Shown: positions 979-10,429, numbered from the stretch's first letter. The stretch is 38,024 bases of DNA from Sphingomonadaceae bacterium (GCA_050261575.1 JBLNDL010000014.1:74054-112077), one strand, 5' to 3'. Made by a program: numbers and translations. Notes: a model not told the origin generated them from the sequence alone.

Positions 979-2253
979 TCAGGATTCACCGTTGCCGGGG
1001 ATCCTCCGCTCCTCCGGTCTGAAGAGCCCGTGGGATCGCATTCGGATGGTTGGATCGGCCTGCGGGTGGCCGACGTAAGTCTTTGCGCTATCGTTGCGAG
1101 GCCAGCCGGGGTGAGCGGGGGTGCCGAGCGGAGGGGGCAATTCGATGCCCAGGTGCTTCGCTGGGGTAACCTGGAACACCTGGTAGAGCTCTTCCCTGGT
1201 GCAGCCGTAGGCGAGCAGCAGCTTAACCATCCAGCGGGCCGCGATGGAGGGTGGGAAGTTCTGCAACTGGTTGAAGTCGGACCCGTAGACTACGTTCTCA
1301 GGGCCCACCTCCTTCACGATGCGCGCGGCATAGAGCGGGCCGCTTTCGTGCAGCGGGAAGGCCATGGCCCCGAGGCCTGAAAGCATGATCTTGGCACCTC
1401 TTTCGGCCTGAGCCTTCATGTTCTCGATGGTGTGCTTGGAGTGGATGTGCGCGGGGTGCACCACCTCCATTCGGGTTACCCCGAGCCGTCGAGCCTCCTC
1501 GAATAGGATGGCACTATCCTCGTATGGGTAGTGGCCGGTGGCCAGGATCAGGTCGTTATCCGCCACGATGCGCAGGATCTCCTGCATAGCTGGAATGACC
1601 TTGCGGTTCTCGTCCAGGAAATGCAGCCCGAACCCGGACCAATCGTCGTAGACCACCCGCCTGTGATGGTAGGAGTCCACCATCGGCATCCAGACGTACT
1701 TCATGCCGGGGAAGCCCAGACACTTCTTCACGGCCTCCGGATTGATCCCGCCCACGGAGTAGCTGAGGGTGACGCCTCCGAAGCACTGGACCGGGCGAAG
1801 CCCACGTTCCTCGGCGTAGCGGTTCACGGCCTTCTGAACGAGGGCGTTGCGGGATGCGGACGGGCTGTACCAAGTCTTGACCACCATGGCTCGCATGCCG
1901 ATGTCGGTGTAGTCCATGGCGATGTCGTCTTCCAGCATCAGCCGCTCCATCGGGTCGGAGCCGCCGTGGACGTGGATGTCGATGGAGTTGCAGAGGATGT
2001 CGTCGACATCTTGCTCGGAGAACTTGGCGCCGGCCAGGAAGCGGGCGTACTGGATGTTGGCGAACTGAACCTGCTGCCTTATCAGGAAGGTGAATATCTC
2101 GTCGCTGATACCGGGTATGTCAACCTTTGCGAGGGTTTTCAGCCGCTCGACCCTCTCTGCTGGGACCTCGATCTGAAGGATCTCCTTGAGGCTGAGCCCC
2201 TCCTCCGGCTTGACGCTTCCCCGTTTTTCGGGTGCGTTCTTCTGGTCGGTCAT
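979..2253 (-). CDS. DUF6282-family metal-dependent amidohydrolase-like protein with N-terminal extension
   Basis: DIHVH (HxH) motif, LATGH, VVHP and YGSDF amidohydrolase-fold signatures; GGAGG RBS before ATG; paralog of 13116..14000. Confidence 0.75.
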   Translation of the reverse strand: MTDQKNAPEKRGSVKPEEGLSLKEILQIEVPAERVERLKTLAKVDIPGISDEIFTFLIRQQVQFANIQYARFLAGAKFSEQDVDDILCNSIDIHVHGGSDPMERLMLEDDIAMDYTDIGMRAMVVKTWYSPSASRNALVQKAVNRYAEERGLRPVQCFGGVTLSYSVGGINPEAVKKCLGFPGMKYVWMPMVDSYHHRRVVYDDWSGFGLHFLDENRKVIPAMQEILRIVADNDLILATGHYPYEDSAILFEEARRLGVTRMEVVHPAHIHSKHTIENMKAQAERGAKIMLSGLGAMAFPLHESGPLYAARIVKEVGPENVVYGSDFNQLQNFPPSIAARWMVKLLLAYGCTREELYQVFQVTPAKHLGIELPPPLGTPAHPGWPRNDSAKTYVGHPQADPTIRMRSHGLFRPEERRIPGNGES

Positions 2254-2433
2254 TGCTCCTCCGACTGCCCATCTCTTGGGATGGCAAGACTGGTAGTTGA
2301 GGGTTTCGCTGTATCAGGTTTTCCGAGTGAACGAGATGGAAAGGGATGGGTATCAACCAGAACGGGGGTAGTGCCAGGGACAGACCGGCGAGAAGTCGCT
2401 CGGGAGCGAGGCCCGGCAACCAGGCCGCCGATT

Positions 2434-2480
2434 CTATCGTTATGCTAAACGTTTAGCATAAACGTTTAGCATAACGATAG
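2434..2480. promoter_or_regulatory. LacI-family-type operator palindrome (TGCTAAAC|GTTTAGCA) with a 13-bp internal duplication
   Basis: Perfect 22-bp palindrome TTATGCTAAACGTTTAGCATAA at 2440-2461; 17-bp inverted repeat 2434-2450/2464-2480; AAACGTTT core with central CG typical of LacI/GalR operators; overlaps the -10/+1 of the leftward promoter. Confidence 0.75.
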
Positions 2481-2502
2481 CACGAGGGCTGGGCTGTGTC
2501 AA
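2474..2502 (-). promoter_or_regulatory. sigma70-type promoter for the DUF6282-tctC operon
   Basis: Minus strand reads TTGACA-17 bp-TATCGT with extended -10 TGn. Confidence 0.75.
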
Positions 2503-2507
2503 CAAAC

Positions 2508-2536
2508 TTGACACGATTCTGGAACTACCCTATACT
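2508..2536 (+). promoter_or_regulatory. sigma70-type promoter for the aro leader/operon
   Basis: TTGACA (2508-2513), 17 bp, TATACT (2531-2536). Confidence 0.85.
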
Positions 2537-2583
2537 GGCGACCAGTTCGGGGCGAACCCGAGTGCAGGTTTCGTCGGATCAAG

Positions 2584-2640
2584 ATGACAGCGCTCAACAG
2601 CTACTACTACTTTAAGAGCCGGCATGACGGGGCTCCCTAG
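2584..2640 (+). CDS. Tyr/Phe-rich attenuator leader peptide [18 protein letters not shown]
   Basis: 18-aa ORF with TAC TAC TAC TTT at 2602-2613, between the promoter and a terminator, upstream of DAHP synthase. Confidence 0.85.
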
Positions 2641-2679
2641 AGAAGACCAATAGGGACGCCCAAGACCCCGTCATGCCGA

Positions 2680-2716
2680 AAGGAGCAGAGGAGAAATCCT
2701 CTGCTCCTTCGTTTTT
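2680..2716 (+). terminator. Intrinsic terminator (attenuator) upstream of aroF
   Basis: 13-bp stem AAGGAGCAGAGGA/TCCTCTGCTCCTT, GAAA loop, followed by CGTTTTT. Confidence 0.85.
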
Positions 2717-2753
2717 GTCCGCCACCGCCAAGGCAGAAGAAAGGAGATCCGCC

Positions 2754-3803
2754 ATGATCGTGGTGATGTCCAGCCAGGCTACGGAGACGCAGATCCAGGG
2801 GGTTCTGGCGCGACTGGAGAGCGAGGGGCTGAAGGGCCACCGCTCGGGAGGAGAGGAGCGAACGGTGATTGGCGTCATAGGCACGCGTTTCGAGCCGCAG
2901 TTGAGCGAGCAGTTGGAGATGCTCGCGGGGGTGGAGAAGGTCACGCCCATCAGCAAGCCGTACAAGCTGGCCAGTCGCGAGTTCAAGCCCTTCGATAGCG
3001 TCGTCCGGGTGGGCGATCTGGAGATCGGCGGCCCGGAGCTAGCGGTGATGGCCGGGCCGTGCTCCGTGGAGAGCCTGGACCAGATGATGGAGACCGCTGC
3101 AGCGGTTAAAGCGGCCGGTGCACGGGTGCTGAGGGGTGGCGCCTTCAAGCCGCGCAGCTCGCCCTACTCCTTCCAGGGTATGGGCGAGTCCGGCCTGCAG
3201 ATCCTGGCGGAGGTGCGGGAGCGGACGGGGCTGAAGATCGTGACCGAGGTGATGGAGCCGGAGCAGGTGAGGGTGGTGGCGGAGCACGCGGATATCCTGC
3301 AGATCGGCGCTCGCAGCATGCAGAACTTCCCTCTCTTGAAGGAGGTGGGCAAGATCGACAAGCCCGTGCTGCTCAAACGGGGGATGGCGGCCACGATCGA
3401 GGAGTGGCTGATGGCGGCCGAGTACATCATGGCTTCCGGCAACTTCGACGTCATCCTCTGTGAGAGGGGGATCCGGACCTTCGAGACCGCGGTGCGGAAC
3501 ACCCTCGACCTGAGCGCCGTGCCGGTGGTCAAGCGGCTGAGCCACCTCCCGGTGATCGTGGATCCGAGCCACGGCACTGGCAAGTGGTACCTGGTGAAGC
3601 CGATGGCGCTGGCCGCCGTGGCCGCGGGTGCCGACGGGCTGTTGATCGAGGTGCACCCCACCCCCGACACGGCGCGGTCCGACGGCCCGCAGTCCCTCAC
3701 GCTGCCCAACTTCGCGGACTTGATGAACTCCCTGCGGGTGGTGAGTTCGGCGGTGGGCCGCCGGGTGCCCGACGGCATGGATGCGGACGTGGTGGCGGCA
3801 TGA
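2754..3803 (+). CDS. aroF: DAHP synthase, type I-beta with N-terminal regulatory domain
   Basis: MIVVM start with [58 protein letters not shown] motifs. ORF-track start 2673 lies within the attenuator. Confidence 0.95.
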
Positions 3804-5152
3804 GCGGCGAGCGGATGTGGAGACATGGAGACACGGAACCCGGTGCAGCCAGCACCCGGATCGTGACACCTCCCAGGCGACTGCGGGGTCAGCTTCGGGT
3901 ACCGGGAGACAAGTCCATCTCGCATCGGGCCCTGATGCTCAACGCCGTGGCTCGAGGCTCCGCCGTCGTGTCGAACCTCGGCCCGGGGGAGGACTGCATC
4001 TCCACCGTGCGGTGCCTCCGCGCACTTGGGGTGTCTATCGAGACGGCGGACGGGGGGGCCACCGCCAGGGTGGAGGGCGTTGGGCTGCGTGGGCTGCGGG
4101 AGCCGGAGGACGTGCTGGATGCGGGCAACTCCGGCACCGCCATGCGGCTCCTTGCCGGGTTGCTGGCCGGGCAACCGTTCCTTTCGATCCTCACGGGCGA
4201 CGGCTCGCTTCGCTCTCGCCCGATGCGCAGGGTGATCGACCCGTTGCGCCGGATGGGCGCGCAGTTGTGGGGGCGCAGAGGGGATACCCTGCCGCCCCTG
4301 GTGGTGAGGGGAGGCGAGCTGAGGGGAATCGACTTCACCCTGCCTGTGGCCAGCGCGCAGCTCAAGTCCGCCATCCTGCTGGCGGGGCTCCACGCCGACG
4401 GCCCCACGGTGATCCGCGAGCCGCAGCCCTCCAGGGACCACACCGAGCGGATGCTGGCGGCCCAGGGGGTGGACATCACCCGCTCCGAGCGGGTGGTCAC
4501 GTTGCGCCCCCCCGCGGAACTCGATTCCCTGGACGTCGAGGTGCCTGGGGACATCTCCTCGGCGGCCTTCTGGTTGGTGGCGGCGGCGATCCATCCCGAT
4601 GCGGAGATAGTGGTGAGGGATGTGGGGGTGAACCCGGGCCGCACGGGGGTGCTGGAGGCGCTGAGAGCCATGGGAGCCGACCTGGAGGTGATCCCAAGGG
4701 GTGAGCGAGCCGGGGAGCCGGTCGCGGACCTGGTGGCCCGCTCCAGTAGACTCCAGGGGATCACGGTCGGTGGAGAGATGATCCCGCGGCTGATCGACGA
4801 GATCCCCGTGCTGGCAGTGGCGGCCGCCTGCGCGGAGGGGGAGACCCGGTTCGTCGACGCGGCGGAGCTGCGGGTCAAGGAGACCGACCGGGTGCATGCG
4901 GTCGCGACCGAACTGTCGAAGCTGGGTGCCAGCGTGGAGGAGCTGCCGGATGGGCTGGTGGTTCGGGGCGGCCGCGCCCTGCGGGGCACCACCTGCCTCA
5001 GCTACGGCGACCATCGCATGGCGATGGCCGTGGCGGTGGCCGGACTGGTGGCCGAGGGCGAGACTGCCGTCCAGGGTGCTGGCACCGCGACGGTTTCCTA
5101 CCCAGGCTTCTGGGAGGAGATGGAGTCCCTCTGCGAGGGGGGCCGGACGTGA
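3800..5152 (+). CDS. aroA: 3-phosphoshikimate 1-carboxyvinyltransferase (EPSP synthase)
   Basis: [54 protein letters not shown] overlap with the aroF stop. Confidence 0.95.
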
Positions 5153-5265
5153 GGCGGCTGGCGGTGATCGGGCACACTGGTCGGGTACAATACCGATCGG
5201 CGAGTTTCCCCCCGACGCTTCGGGGAGGAGCGGCATCGATGTTGGTGCATCAGGGGAGATAGACG

Positions 5266-6453
5266 ATGCTCAGGGTACTTAGAATGCTCACGGCCGGGGA
5301 GTCGCACGGGCAAGCGCTCGTGGGGGTGCTGGAGGGCATGCCCGCCGGGTTGCCCCTCTCCCAGGACCACATAGACCTTCAGTTGCGGCGCCGGCAGGGC
5401 GGCTACGGTCGGGGTGGGCGGATGAAGATCGAGCGCGATCGGGCCCTCCTGCTCTCGGGCGTGCGCCACGGGTTGACCCTGGGCAGCCCCATCGGGCTTC
5501 AGATCCAGAACCGCGATTGGGCCAACTGGCAGGGCCAGATGGGCGTGGAGCCTCCCGAGGAGCCGGTGGACGTCGTCACCCGGCTGAGGCCGGGCCACGC
5601 GGACCTGGCGGGGGCTCTGAAGTACGGGCATGCGGACGTCAGGAACGTGCTGGAGCGGGCGAGCGCCCGGGAGACTGCCATGCGGGTGGCGCTGGGGGCG
5701 GTCGCGCAGCGGCTGCTCTCGCATTTCGGCATCGAGCTTCGGAGTCAGACCATCTCCATCGATGGCGTCGTGGCTCGGCCCCCGGACTGGGTCTCCACCG
5801 ATCGGCGGGGTGCGTGGGGCGAGCGAGCCGAGGCTTACTGGCGAGCGGTGGAGTCCTCCCCGGTTCGCTGTGGGGATGAGGCGGCGGGAGAGGCGATGGT
5901 CCGGGCCGTCGACGAGGCGCGGCGGGACGGCGACACCCTGGGGGGAGTCTTCCAGGTGGTGGCCTACGGGGTGCCGGCAGGGCTCGGAAGCCACGTACAT
6001 TGGGACCGGAAGCTGAACGCACGGCTATCCGCGGCACTCATGAGCATCAACTCGGTGAAGGGTGTCGAGGTGGGAGCCGGATTCGGCGGGGCTGAAGCTC
6101 GGGGTAAGGACTACCACGACGTGATCGAGCACCACCCGGAGCGAGGGTGGACCCGCCGAGGAAACAACGCAGGGGGGATCGAGGGGGGGATGAGCAACGG
6201 CGAGCCGATTGTGGTGCGCTGTGCGGCCAAGCCGATACCGACTCTGATGAAGCCGTTGCCATCTGTGGACCTGGTGACGAAGGAGCCGATCGCGGCCGCC
6301 ATCGAGCGGAGCGACGTGTGCGTCGTGCCGGCGGCGGGCGTCGTGGGAGAGGCCATGGTGGCGCTTGTGCTGGCGGATGCCTTCCTGGAGAAGTTCGGGG
6401 GGGATTCCGTGGAGGAGATCGGGCGGAACTACGCCGGGAGGACGACGCAGTGA
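5266..6453 (+). CDS. aroC: Chorismate synthase
   Basis: [51 protein letters not shown] motifs. Confidence 0.97.
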
Positions 6454-7076
6454 ACGTGGTGTTGATCGGCTTCAGCGGCAGTGGCAAGTCCAGCGTGGGG
6501 CGGCTGCTGGCGCTGAGGCTGGGTTGGGAATTGATCGACACGGATGCCGAGGTGGAGCGGATGGCGGGGAAGAGGATCCACCAGATCTTCGCCGAGGAGG
6601 GCGAGGCGGGCTTTCGCCGCCTGGAGAGTGAGGCGGTGCTGCACGCCCTCGTGGGGGAGCGCCGGGTAGTGGCCGTAGGGGGCGGCGCCGTGGTGGACCC
6701 CGCCAACCGCGAGGCGATGCGGAAGGGCAACCTGGTGGTGCTGTTGGATGCGGGGGTCGAGACCCTTCACCGCCGGTTGGCGGCAGCGGTCGTGGCGGAG
6801 CCGAGGCCGATGCTGGGAGCGGAGGACGGGGAGAGGGCAGGAGGGGAGGCCGGCCGCGCCTGCACGTCTGGCGGGCCCGCAGATCCGCCGGCCCCTGCAG
6901 ACCCCGTCTTGGCCCGCATCGCGGCCCTGAAAGCGCAGAGAGACCCCATCTATCGCGAAACCGCACATCTGTCGATATGGACCGAGGGGCTGGACGTCGA
7001 GAGCATCGCCGATCGGGTGGCAGAGGCAGTCGGGGCGGCGTGCAGCGAGACCCCGGACACTGCGAGGCAGCCATGA
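6450..7076 (+). CDS. aroK: Shikimate kinase
   Basis: GTG start overlapping the aroC stop; GFSGSGKS P-loop, [19 protein letters not shown]; low-complexity insertion after RPML. Confidence 0.92.
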
Positions 7077-8173
7077 TCAGACTAGCTATCGAGGCTGCGG
7101 CCGGCGGATACGAAGTCCTGGTAGGTCGGGGATTGCTCCAGTCGACCGGGCGGTTGCTGAAGGAGTCAGGGCTGGTGGGCTCGATCCGCCTGGTGGCGGA
7201 CCAGGCGGTGTACGCCCTCTATGGGGAGCGGTTGGAGAAGTCGCTGGCAGACGAGGGCTACTCCGTGTCGTCCTACTCGGTGGTGCCCGGCGAGGCCACC
7301 AAGTCGCTTGAGATGGCGGCCATCCTCTACGACTGGTTGGTGGACTCCGGGACAGAGCGGCGAGACCTGGTGCTCGCACTGGGCGGGGGGGTGGTCGGCG
7401 ACTTGGCGGGTTTCGTCGCGGCCACCTTCGTGAGGGGGCTCCGGTTGGTGCAGCTCCCGACGAGCCTCCTGGCGCAGGTGGACTCCAGCGTCGGCGGAAA
7501 GGTGGCCGTCAACCACCCTCGAGGCAAGAACCTGATCGGTGCCTTCTATCCACCCTCGTTGGTGATCGCCGATCCGGCGACCCTCTCCTCGTTGCCTCGC
7601 AGGGAGGTCTCCGCTGCCTTTGCCGAGGTGGCGAAGATGGGCCTCATAATGGATGCGAGTCTCTTCGAACGGCTGGAGCGGCGGGGGGAATCGCTGCTGG
7701 GTGTGGAGGGCGAGGAGGTGGACGAGATCGTCGCCCGCACGATCCAGTTGAAGGCGCAGGTGGTGCAGGCCGACGAGAGGGAGGGTGGGCTTCGGGCCAT
7801 CCTGAACTACGGCCACACCATCGGGCATGGCGTGGAGGCGGTCGCTGGATACGGAAGATACCGACATGGCGAGGCGGTGGCAATCGGGATGGTGGGCGCG
7901 GCCAGGATCGCCGTTGCCCTGGGGATGGTCGACGCAGCCACCGCGGACCGGCAGGAAGCGCTGCTACGCCGCCTTGCCTTACCCACCCGCTGCCCCGGGC
8001 TCTCTCCGGCGGGACTCTGGGCGGCGATGGCGCACGACAAGAAAGCGAGCGAGGGGAGACTGGCCTGGGTGCTCCCCGAGGGGATCGGTCGGGTTACCGT
8101 CCGGCGAGACGTGCCGGTCGAGCTGGTGCGGAGGGTGCTGGGCGAGCTGGTGAAAGAGGCTCCCTCTCCCTAG
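7073..8173 (+). CDS. aroB: 3-dehydroquinate synthase
   Basis: GEATKS, LGGGVVGDLAGF, PTSLLAQVDSSVGGK, KNLIGAF, LNYGHTIGH, HGEAVAIGM, DKK. Confidence 0.96.
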   Translation: MIRLAIEAAAGGYEVLVGRGLLQSTGRLLKESGLVGSIRLVADQAVYALYGERLEKSLADEGYSVSSYSVVPGEATKSLEMAAILYDWLVDSGTERRDLVLALGGGVVGDLAGFVAATFVRGLRLVQLPTSLLAQVDSSVGGKVAVNHPRGKNLIGAFYPPSLVIADPATLSSLPRREVSAAFAEVAKMGLIMDASLFERLERRGESLLGVEGEEVDEIVARTIQLKAQVVQADEREGGLRAILNYGHTIGHGVEAVAGYGRYRHGEAVAIGMVGAARIAVALGMVDAATADRQEALLRRLALPTRCPGLSPAGLWAAMAHDKKASEGRLAWVLPEGIGRVTVRRDVPVELVRRVLGELVKEAPSP

Positions 8174-8183
8174 GGAGAGGGAG
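8161..8183. repeat. REP-like palindrome over the aroB stop
   Basis: TCCCTCTCCC-TA-GGGAGAGGGA perfect inverted repeat containing the TAG stop. Confidence 0.6.
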
Positions 8184-8224
8184 AGAGTGGGACCTCCCCG
8201 AGGGGGGAGAGATGGGAGTTGTAA

Positions 8225-8665
8225 GTGAAGATCGCGGTGGTGAACGGCCCGAATCTGGACATCCTGGGGAAGCGGGAGCCCGGGGTGTACGGCACCACGA
8301 CCCTGGCGGAGATCGAGGACCGACTGATGGAGCGAGCGAATGCCCTGGGGGTGCAGTTGCAGTTCTTCCAGAGCAACCACGAAGGGTCTATAATTGATTA
8401 TCTTCACGAGCTTGAAGGCACCGTCGATGGTTTGATCATCAATCCCGCCGCATTCAGTCACTACAGCGTGGCGGTGCGCGATGCTCTCGCGTCCCTCTCG
8501 ATTCCGATCATCGAGGTGCACCTGTCCAACATCTACGCGCGGGAGCCGTTTCGGCATCACTCGATAACCGCCGAGGTAGCGACCGGACAGATCAGCGGGC
8601 TCGGAGCAGAAGGCTATTTGCTGGCACTTCAGGGACTAATAGCCCTTGTTGGAACAGGGGGCTAG
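8225..8665 (+). CDS. aroQ: Type II 3-dehydroquinate dehydratase
   Basis: NGPNLDILGKREPGVYG, QSNHEG, INPAAFSHYS, EVHLSNIYAREPFRHHS. Confidence 0.97.
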   Translation: MKIAVVNGPNLDILGKREPGVYGTTTLAEIEDRLMERANALGVQLQFFQSNHEGSIIDYLHELEGTVDGLIINPAAFSHYSVAVRDALASLSIPIIEVHLSNIYAREPFRHHSITAEVATGQISGLGAEGYLLALQGLIALVGTGG

Positions 8666-8716: not shown

Positions 8717-10429
8717 GTGGGAGCAGGACCAGACGGGGTCTTCGAGGCGATCTGGGTGCAGGCGGCGAAGGTGCTCCCAGCGGAGTCGTTCTCGATCGCG
8801 CTCTGTGGCCCCGGCCCCAGCCAGATCACCTACGAGTTGGTGGTCGAGCGTGGGGTGAAGCAGGTCCCTCAGACCCGAGAGCTCGGAGACGGACTCAGCG
8901 AGGTGGTACTTCGCACCGGCAAGCCTCTGCTGGTGCGGAACTTCGAACTCGAGAAGGGGTGTCTCCCGCTGTCCTGGATGGGAGCACCGATGATCGCTGG
9001 CGGCAAGGTCCTCGGCCTGCTCTCCGCCCAAAGCTACCGCCAGGGGGCCTTCGAACAGAGGGACCTCTCCATCCTCGCCACGTTGGCCTCCTGGGCTGCT
9101 TCCTCCATCGAGTACTCCCGGCGCGTGCGGGCGCAGAGGCAGGAGGTCGAATCCTCGGCCGCTTTGTTGCGCGTGGCCAGGGAGTTGGGGAAGGAGACGG
9201 AGGAATCTGGGCTGTTCCGATCGGTGGTGGAGATGGTGCCCACCGCGGTGGAGTGCGATCGGTGCTCGGTGTGGTCCTGGGTTCCCGACCGGCGAGAGTT
9301 CCGGCCCGCGTGGCGCGCCAGCCCGGCGTCCCGTAAGGCCGAGTGCTTTACCTCGTCGCCCATGAGGCCCGATGAGATCCCCGCCGTCGCGGAACTGCTC
9401 AGAACCGTCGACGTCGTGGTGGTGGGAGACGTGGAGGGCGGGCAGCTCGGCGCCGTCCCGGACATGGTGCCGCTCGAGATCGGCTGCGTCGCCTTCGTGC
9501 CGCTGGCGATCGACCGCGAGGTGGTCGGACTGATCGTGGTCGTGCGATCCCGGAGCCAGGACGGCTTCAGTCCCTGGGAGATGGACCTGCTCCGGGGCCT
9601 TGCCGACATAGTGGGGCTGGCCCTGGTGAACCAGCGGCACCATCGACAGGCGGGCGAGGCGGCGGCGCTGAGAGAGTTGAGCGATCTGAAGTCTCGGCTG
9701 ATCTCAACGATCTCTCACGAGCTGAGAACCCCTCTGAGCTTCGTCCAAGCCGGAAGCGAGCTGCTGATGCAGCGGCTCTTCGAGCCGGACCAGTTGCGGC
9801 AGGTGGCCGGCCTGGTCAACCAGGGGGCGGTGCGGTTGGCGGAGGTGGTCGACGACATCATCGAGTTCGCCGACCTGCAGTCCGGGACCATTCTGCTCTC
9901 CCCTCAGCCTACGAACCTGGGTGCGCTGATGCGGGATGCCATCGCCGATGCCACCGGCGTGGCCCATGGACACCGAGTCCTGCTCGATGTGGACGAGCCG
10001 CTTCCGGCGGTCAGGGTGGACCGCGACAAGCTGAAGTCGGTCGTGGCGAGACTGGTGCGGAACGCGCTCAACTTCTCTCAGGAGCCTGCGGCGGTGGTGG
10101 TGAGGCTCTCCCTGGCCGAGGAGAGGGTGCGGATCGAGGTAGCCGACAGCGGTATCGGGATTCCGCCCGAGGACCTGGAGAAGGTGTTCGACCCATTCTT
10201 CCGGGGCGAGTTGAGCCAGATTCGGTGCGTCCCGGGCGCAGGATTGGGTCTCTCCATCGTGAAGCAGTTGGTGGATATCATGGGCGGCGACGTGTCCGTG
10301 CAGAGCGAGGTGGACAAGGGCACGGCCGTCGTGGTCTCCCTCCCCGTCGAGTTCATCGAGCCAGCGATCAGGACCGGCAACGGGCACGGATACCCGATCG
10401 AGTCCCTCACCGGGGAGAGCCGGGTGTAG
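8717..10429 (+). CDS. Cytoplasmic sensor histidine kinase with two GAF domains
   Basis: SWMGAPM...LGLLSAQS (GAF), second GAF (FVPL...VVGLIVV), H-box ISHELRTPL, N-box RNALNFS, DSGIGI, VFDPFFR, GAGLGLSI; no obvious TM helix. Start uncertain. Confidence 0.9.
   Translation: MGAGPDGVFEAIWVQAAKVLPAESFSIALCGPGPSQITYELVVERGVKQVPQTRELGDGLSEVVLRTGKPLLVRNFELEKGCLPLSWMGAPMIAGGKVLGLLSAQSYRQGAFEQRDLSILATLASWAASSIEYSRRVRAQRQEVESSAALLRVARELGKETEESGLFRSVVEMVPTAVECDRCSVWSWVPDRREFRPAWRASPASRKAECFTSSPMRPDEIPAVAELLRTVDVVVVGDVEGGQLGAVPDMVPLEIGCVAFVPLAIDREVVGLIVVVRSRSQDGFSPWEMDLLRGLADIVGLALVNQRHHRQAGEAAALRELSDLKSRLISTISHELRTPLSFVQAGSELLMQRLFEPDQLRQVAGLVNQGAVRLAEVVDDIIEFADLQSGTILLSPQPTNLGALMRDAIADATGVAHGHRVLLDVDEPLPAVRVDRDKLKSVVARLVRNALNFSQEPAAVVVRLSLAEERVRIEVADSGIGIPPEDLEKVFDPFFRGELSQIRCVPGAGLGLSIVKQLVDIMGGDVSVQSEVDKGTAVVVSLPVEFIEPAIRTGNGHGYPIESLTGESRV

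Follow-up and report, generated by a model that had tools for sequence, protein, structure and literature searches.

The window, the whole stretch of 38,024 nucleotides analyzed here, carries genes of the common aromatic pathway on its plus strand, headed by aroF, whose product joins a DAHP synthase domain to an N-terminal ferredoxin-like regulatory domain (Table 1). The preliminary description had proposed a shikimate operon of aroF and aroA; the operon is longer, and Pfam assignments of the genes behind aroF, which together span 3863..8665 (+), gave the order aroF-aroA-aroC-aroK-aroB-aroQ. In this genome (G000), a search for PF00793, which covers type I DAHP synthases, gave aroF as its sole match. 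Directly 3' of aroQ is a gene for a sensor histidine kinase of the GAF-GAF-HisKA-HATPase type (8717-10429). Public RNA data contributed one soil metatranscriptome, from which a single 155-nt contig was obtained; it covers 2790-2944 and lies within aroF, outside the leader.

On the 5' side of the aroF leader, a large perfect palindrome (TATCGTTATGCTAAACGTTTAGCAT AAACGTTTAGCATAACGATA) that contains two overlapping copies of ATGCTAAACGTTTAGCAT was observed at 2437-2480. It overlaps the -10 element of a divergent promoter-like site on the minus strand (2502..2474; TTGACA, 17 nt, TATCGT; 10/12 positions), and this site faces a DUF6282/amidohydrolase gene (979-2253) and a gene for a TctC-type receptor. 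Judged by the consensus, the palindrome resembles an operator of the LacI/GalR type; similar palindromes occur elsewhere in two related genomes (G001:C32 and G003:C70).

Table 1. Features of the aroF leader and of the genes that follow it, in window coordinates
Feature	Position	Strand	Details
Sigma-70-type promoter	2508..2536	+	TTGACA 2508-2513, 17-nt spacer, TATACT 2531-2536; 11/12 consensus positions
Leader ORF	2584..2640	+	ATG 2584 to TAG 2638-2640; 18 codons plus stop
Control codons	2602..2613	+	TAC TAC TAC TTT (Tyr-Tyr-Tyr-Phe); end 6 nt before the foot of hairpin 1
Hairpin 1 (59 nt)	2620..2678	+	Perfect 13-bp outer helix 2620-2632/2666-2678; inner 6-bp stem 2634-2639/2651-2656
Single-base spacer (A)	2679..2679	+	Separates hairpin 1 from the terminator
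Intrinsic terminator	2680..2717	+	Stem 2680-2692/2697-2709, 13 pairs (7 G-C), GAAA loop, then CGTTTTTG
aroF ribosome-binding site (RBS) and start	2740..2756	+	AAAGGAG 2740-2746; ATG 2754
aroF, DAHP synthase with N-terminal ferredoxin-like regulatory domain	2754..3803	+	Pfam DAHP_synth_1 2.5e-81; DAHP_snth_FXD 4.1e-20
aroA, EPSP synthase domain	from about 3863, frame ends 5152	+	Start approximate
aroC, chorismate synthase	5266-6453	+	
aroK, shikimate kinase (SKI domain)	from about 6477, frame ends 7076	+	Start approximate
aroB, dehydroquinate synthase	6977-8173	+	
aroQ, type II dehydroquinase	8225-8665	+	

The region ahead of aroF holds the elements of a leader. The preliminary description had listed a consensus promoter, an ORF of 18 amino acids with Tyr-Tyr-Tyr-Phe codons, a perfect 13-bp helix enclosing a 6-bp stem over the leader stop, and a 13-bp terminator with a U-tract ahead of the aroF RBS, and each of these was found where it had been placed. 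A promoter scan of 2000-3200 returned two promoter-like sites where 0.2 was expected, TTGACA...TATACT stands at the equivalent place in relatives, and from its position transcription is predicted to start at about 2543. The leader ORF is located 114 nt 5' of the aroF ATG and is preceded by a weak Shine-Dalgarno sequence (GGAT); its stop codon sits in the upper part of hairpin 1, overlapped by the inner stem. Predicted stabilities in the window were -33.3 kcal/mol for hairpin 1 and -23.7 kcal/mol for the terminator. The minimum-energy fold keeps the two as separate helices with no bases common to both, and in some relatives the last base or two of hairpin 1, at most, can join the terminator instead. 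The 218-nt leader as a whole folds at -92 kcal/mol (z = -6.35), and 0 of 200 dinucleotide shuffles folded as well. A scan of 2200-3000 against Rfam 15 at E values up to 10 found no leader or T-box family; the seven matches that it gave were all far below their gathering scores (the best at 22.7 bits versus 55.8).

Two further structures were seen in the leader. A small G-C stem-loop (UUCGGG-GCGAA-CCCGAG) lies at 2546-2562, just after the predicted transcription start, and may serve as a 5' stabilizer; comparable CGGGG...CCCG hairpins stand at the equivalent place in three close relatives, and the stem-loop is absent from the minimum-energy fold of the whole leader. At 2703-2748, the terminator 3' arm together with the U-tract (CUCCUUCGUUUUUGUC) can pair in the minimum-energy fold with the purine-rich region of the aroF RBS (GGCAGAAGAAAGGAG), and a second, translational layer of control acting through this predicted pairing is conceivable.

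The distribution of the leader was then followed by DNA and covariance searches. A DNA search with the leader was run over 41 related genomes and gave matches in 4/4 genomes of the same family and weaker matches in other families of the order; the seven relative loci that were inspected all share the layout of ORF, helix, and terminator, and one of their leaders includes MLSTASSSWYYFRRRHEGATG. A covariance model (R1) built from 8 sequences matched 31 of 39 genomes of the order and, with stricter filters, 34 of 151 sampled Chloroflexota genomes, a tally that includes one unpublished genome (G075); the related genomes in these counts are non-independent samples. The closest named relatives of aroF are themselves from Chloroflexota metagenome-assembled genomes. 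When 80 aroF loci were grouped by phylum according to their record titles, the element was present upstream of aroF in 22 of the 38 with Chloroflexota-type titles, among them Thermomicrobiales, Nitrolancea, and "Chloroflexia," and in 0 of the 42 from other phyla. A leader of this kind was looked for at the pheS gene of this genome and was not found. When the whole genome was scanned, with crude criteria, for a short ORF together with a hairpin that abuts a terminator, 206 candidates emerged, nearly all of them noise, and among these the codon run was shown by the aroF leader only. One scan candidate outside the window (contig C97 of G000, plus strand, near 8188) has a short ORF, MSTSASSSSLTTTY, that terminates in a hairpin abutting a terminator-like stem; it may be a chance occurrence or a Ser/Thr-rich leader.

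In an alignment of 58 sequences, which had been fitted to the model, 93.3% of cells were paired versus 72.6% in shuffled controls and 34-62% with slid partners. Changes on both sides were seen at 30 of 31 pairs of this alignment: all 18 pairs of the two helices of hairpin 1 covary, and 12 of the 13 terminator pairs show two-sided changes. Inside the order, the helix keeps its sequence (CGGCAUGA/UCAUGCCG) to a high degree; between orders it differs and covaries. A GCAGAGG...CCUCUGC terminator stem is kept across the phylum except in pheS-type leaders, which deviate with GGAGCGGUCC.... A homologous ORF with a run of Trp, Tyr, or Phe codons was present in the relatives parsed, but its frame with respect to the helix changes from genome to genome, three frames being used, with tails such as ...RHDGAP*, ...CGMTG..*, and ...STA*. 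This indicated that the aromatic run and the RNA helix are conserved and that the peptide tail is not. The comparison of aroF upstream regions called for in the preliminary description thus returned a conserved Tyr/Phe run and two covarying helices, and it is confirmed that the leader elements exceed chance, since dozens of relatives share the ORF with its aromatic run and both helices, with covariation. Two other readings of the region were discarded: an arrest peptide, suggested by the Pro-stop tail, because the tail is not conserved and its frame is variable, and a 30S trap at the Shine-Dalgarno-like AAGGAG of the terminator 5' arm, which is unconserved outside the family.

The codon content of the leaders was compared with the genes that follow them. 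The order contributed 37 matches, 29 before DAHP synthases (26 of these genes begin like the aroF of the window, and 3 are without the N-terminal domain) and 8 before pheS. All 29 leaders of DAHP synthases carry both Tyr and Phe codons, and some add Trp. In all 8 pheS leaders the run is Phe-only, as in MSRLFSFTFGTST; Trp is absent, and Tyr occurs once at most. At a single locus of another family, a prephenate dehydrogenase gene follows a leader that carries ...YAYWFYFSPPA. Four of the regulated genes were checked with Pfam, and the assignments held for one pheS, a prephenate dehydrogenase, and two DAHP synthases. Among 66 family members, 51 have TTT as their final aromatic codon, which is notable for G+C-rich genomes. 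The pheS-type leaders (L042, L044, L045, L047-L049, L051, and L060) begin about 12-15 nt after a TATACT box and may therefore be translated from a nearly leaderless mRNA.

Mainly because the codons follow the gene and the run is conserved independently of frame, we consider it highly probable, judging from sequence comparison, that the element is a Tyr/Phe-sensing leader-peptide attenuator of transcription, mediated by the ribosome and responding to charged tRNA. The leader of the window lacks Trp codons and so would sense Tyr and Phe. This is the function that the preliminary description had suggested, and the comparative evidence (the conserved run, the covarying helices, and the match of codons to gene) argues for it. 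It had also suggested that an aromatic leader gates the entry to the pathway; the comparison supports that idea as well, but it has a precedent in aroR-aroF of Corynebacterium glutamicum, for which the passages on aroR in PMC11802643 and PMC4046766 describe a Phe-Tyr-Phe leader peptide before the DAHP synthase gene aroF and increased transcription on Phe limitation. The likeness, an aromatic leader peptide upstream of a DAHP synthase gene, is one of the description given in those passages, and C. glutamicum belongs to another phylum (Actinomycetota). No description of such attenuators in Chloroflexota was found in the full-text literature searched, on which the comparative paper of Lopatovskaya et al. 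(2010) may bear.

The geometry of the hairpin and terminator could be parsed for 66 of 69 distinct matches; the other three were L140, which is truncated where its contig ends, and L155 and L162, whose folds could not be parsed. The choice of frame and the parsing of folds were automatic, and the counts that follow retain three rows that are mis-framed or mis-parsed (L049, L157, and L164). The gap from the last aromatic codon to the helix was 2-8 nt in 60 of the 66 (mode, 5 nt), and the leader stop fell inside hairpin 1 in 63; in 19 of these it stood in the 5' arm, as a UGA shortly after the start of the arm, and in 44 close to the apex. Counted from the first P-site base of a ribosome stalled on the final aromatic codon, the helix begins at +9 to +15 across the family; in the window, TTT 2611-2613 in the A site puts the first P-site base at 2608 and the helix start at +13. 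Hairpin 1 and the terminator were separated by 0 nt in 44 members, by 1 nt in 15 others, and by 2-4 nt in the remaining 7; the 0-1 nt spacing results in part from minimum-energy folding, which extends stems through weak A-U pairs. Measured from G-C core to G-C core, 63 of 67 members had a distance of 0-4 nt, and the window has 3 nt. At the foot, 2.96 of 4 pairs were G-C in hairpin 1 versus 1.66 of 4 in the terminator, and the median stabilities in the family were -34.7 and -17.2 kcal/mol, respectively. Judged by eye, terminator strength showed no evident trend with spacer length.

This layout resembles the enterobacterial trp, pheA, pheST, and his attenuators in having an ORF with cognate codons between a promoter and an intrinsic terminator, with a first hairpin followed by the terminator, and the pheS target also recurs in some of the relatives studied here. 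Classical attenuators, however, work through overlapping 1:2, 2:3, and 3:4 pairings and have their control codons inside segment 1, whereas in the present family the control codons stand just 5' of the hairpin, the stop lies inside it, the hairpin abuts the terminator, and there is no conserved 2:3 pairing. In attenuation of the pyrBI type, alternative RNA pairing is likewise absent, and the terminator hairpin is blocked by a ribosome that follows the polymerase closely; the pyrBI leader ORF extends through the terminator, with polymerase pausing at low UTP as the signal, whereas the present ORF stops 40 nt short of the terminator and the hairpin would serve to draw the ribosome near. T-box leaders of aromatic genes are similar in being about 200 nt long and in ending with a terminator, but no T-box match was obtained from Rfam at E values up to 10, and a translated codon run takes the place of the specifier loop.

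The spacing of the family is the same as that of the tug-of-war riboswitches of Bushhouse, Fu, and Lucks, in which a stable structure lies 0-4 nt 5' of an intrinsic terminator and shares no bases with it (bioRxiv 10.64898/2026.06.17.733018). Antitermination is attributed there to steric competition for the exit channel of the polymerase; with stable terminators, a simple hairpin placed upstream changed little or nothing, and the term "leader peptide" is nowhere mentioned (bioRxiv 10.64898/2026.06.17.733018). The riboswitches depend on a ligand that stabilizes the aptamer, whereas in the present case a translating ribosome would decide whether the hairpin exists at all.

As the best mechanism for the family, though a tentative one, we favor a ribosome-gated "tug-of-war" without antiterminator pairing. 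Counted from the P site, an Escherichia coli ribosome opens mRNA as far as about +11 and shields it as far as about +15; with the helix at +13, a ribosome awaiting Tyr- or Phe-tRNA would therefore touch hairpin 1 without opening it. In starved cells, the ribosome would wait at TAC or TTT and hairpin 1 would stay closed; the closed hairpin, with the ribosome parked at its foot, would leave no slack and crowd the polymerase, so that the lower stem of the terminator would be unable to close and transcription would continue into aroF. In fed cells, the ribosome would read on, unzip the 5' arm of hairpin 1, and stop at TAG 2638-2640; the 28-nt 3' arm (2651-2678) would then be a free spacer, the terminator would close, and transcription would end. 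With no ribosome at all, the bare hairpin would probably lose to the strong terminator, and termination would prevail. The direction of the effect follows from two considerations: starvation should raise expression, and hairpin 1 would be closed when cells are starved, so it is the closed hairpin that must stand in the way of the terminator, although the two have no bases in common. Since a bare hairpin was weak in the preprint, and since a tight distance between codons and helix would be pointless if the hairpin acted alone, the stalled ribosome is proposed to add bulk. This contribution of the ribosome is a proposal that the model needs, because the terminator of the window is stable (about -24 kcal/mol) and something must add to the effect of the hairpin. 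The shared chassis would be re-targeted by its codons, with Tyr/Phe/Trp for DAHP synthases and prephenate dehydrogenase and Phe for pheS.

A classical attenuator, in which a weak or kinetically trapped pairing would sequester the terminator 5' arm when the ribosome stalls, is an unlikely alternative. Its candidate pairings in the window are GCUCC (2632-2636) with GGAGC (2682-2686), or UCAUGCC of the 3' arm with GGAGCAGA. The first of these, noticed in the preliminary description as a competitor of about 5 bp, is real and extends to 7 bp in two close relatives. In the window's family, GCUCC(UU) of the upper 5' arm forms a 1:3 duplex with AAGGAGC at -9.5 to -12.1 kcal/mol (z of -1.8 to -2.8), the window itself standing at -9.5 kcal/mol (z = -1.84) and L025 and L026 at -12.1 kcal/mol, and four pheS-type leaders have 1:3 duplexes of -13.7 to -18.9 kcal/mol. 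Against shuffled sequences, z for 1:3 duplexes was below -1.64 in 10 of 51 sequences, including the window's family and some pheS leaders, but was not significant in the other 41. Moreover, GCUCC(UU) would be locked in hairpin 1 during a stall and covered by the ribosome on read-on and would thus be free in neither state. This complementarity to the terminator arm could nevertheless be a hidden competitor pairing that counts against the tug-of-war. As for pairing between segments 2 and 3, a small 2:3 hairpin does emerge in folds that omit segment 4, solely when the hairpin 1 5' arm is masked, from +8 onward, and because the masked arm corresponds to the fed state, its polarity is wrong for a classical switch. 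The mean z of 2:3 duplexes was +0.28 over 51 sequences, with 1 of 51 below -1.64, and the duplex tests, which covered 1:3, 2:3, 1:4, and 2:4, gave no family-wide signal. A periodic match of UACUACUUU with AAAGCAGAGG, spotted by eye, was likewise dismissed, since pairing of the codon run with segment 3 was worse than in shuffled controls (mean z = +0.70). The fold with a masked 5' region that the preliminary description had recommended as a ribosome mimic was run stepwise in all 8 sequences, and the terminator remained dominant, with a pairing probability of >0.8 at every mask; when segment 4 was omitted, the terminator 5' arm paired weakly. Together, the masked folds and duplex tests indicated that there is no conserved alternative (antiterminator) pairing in the family, and the reservation already expressed about a classical 2:3 switch holds.

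The other explanations differ in the part they give to translation. The hairpin alone might be the antiterminator, by tug-of-war or as a polymerase-modifying RNA, with the ribosome merely opening it and the codon-to-hairpin distance incidental; leader translation would then turn expression off, and an untranslated leader would be read through. The abutting geometry, the G-C-rich foot, and the strong conservation of the helix sequence inside the order all fit this explanation, as does the suppression of termination by upstream structures on their own (bioRxiv 10.64898/2026.06.17.733018), but it leaves the narrow gap of 2-8 nt without a need, and plain hairpins did little against stable terminators in the same preprint. 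The helix also varies between orders and covaries, which argues against a sequence-specific polymerase-binding RNA, and the explanation as a whole is distinctly unlikely. It is very improbable that the polarity is opposite or unspecific, such that the element gauges general translation or terminates more on a stall and the aromatic codons are not sensors. All RNA-only pairings found (2:3, codon run with segment 3, and extension of the terminator by a freed CG at 2677-2678) would favor termination on a stall or read-through in fed cells, yet codon content matches the regulated gene, a reduction of biosynthetic or synthetase genes on starvation would be physiologically senseless, and, in the passages of PMC11802643 that concern them, the experimentally studied aroR-aroF and pheST leaders go up on starvation. 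Finally, the ORF might be untranslated and the two hairpins might be a leader controlled by a protein or ligand or a constitutive partial terminator. The weak Shine-Dalgarno sequence before ATG 2584 speaks for this reading, but in the family members parsed across the phylum the aromatic run lies in an open frame that ends in hairpin 1, in three frames relative to the helix, codon content depends on the downstream gene, and no Rfam family matched the leader in the scan described above, so that an untranslated ORF is barely credible.

The leaders described here are a new phylum-wide family, an RNA family absent from the Rfam 15 scan and from the attenuator literature searched, with an architecture that is unlike the classical model and consistent with the tug-of-war principle. 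Possibly, though we would not yet call it probable, it is the first natural ribosome-gated tug-of-war attenuator, a modular Chloroflexota device found phylum-wide in which termination would be sterically blocked by a stalled ribosome together with an intact hairpin pressed to the terminator foot, without antiterminator pairing, and which would be re-targeted by its codon run. If this mechanism is true, attenuation by a leader peptide can dispense with the overlapping 1:2/2:3/3:4 scheme taught ever since the trp operon; it would suffice to set a hairpin directly against a terminator and have a ribosome open or spare it. The tug-of-war principle would then extend from ligand-binding riboswitches to translation-coupled control, it would be clear why leaders of this kind would be overlooked when antiterminators are sought by structure, and synthetic biology would gain a very simple re-targetable part. 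Whatever the mechanism, the only type I DAHP synthase found now has an assigned regulator, and with it the entire common aromatic pathway, in a lineage that is largely uncultured.
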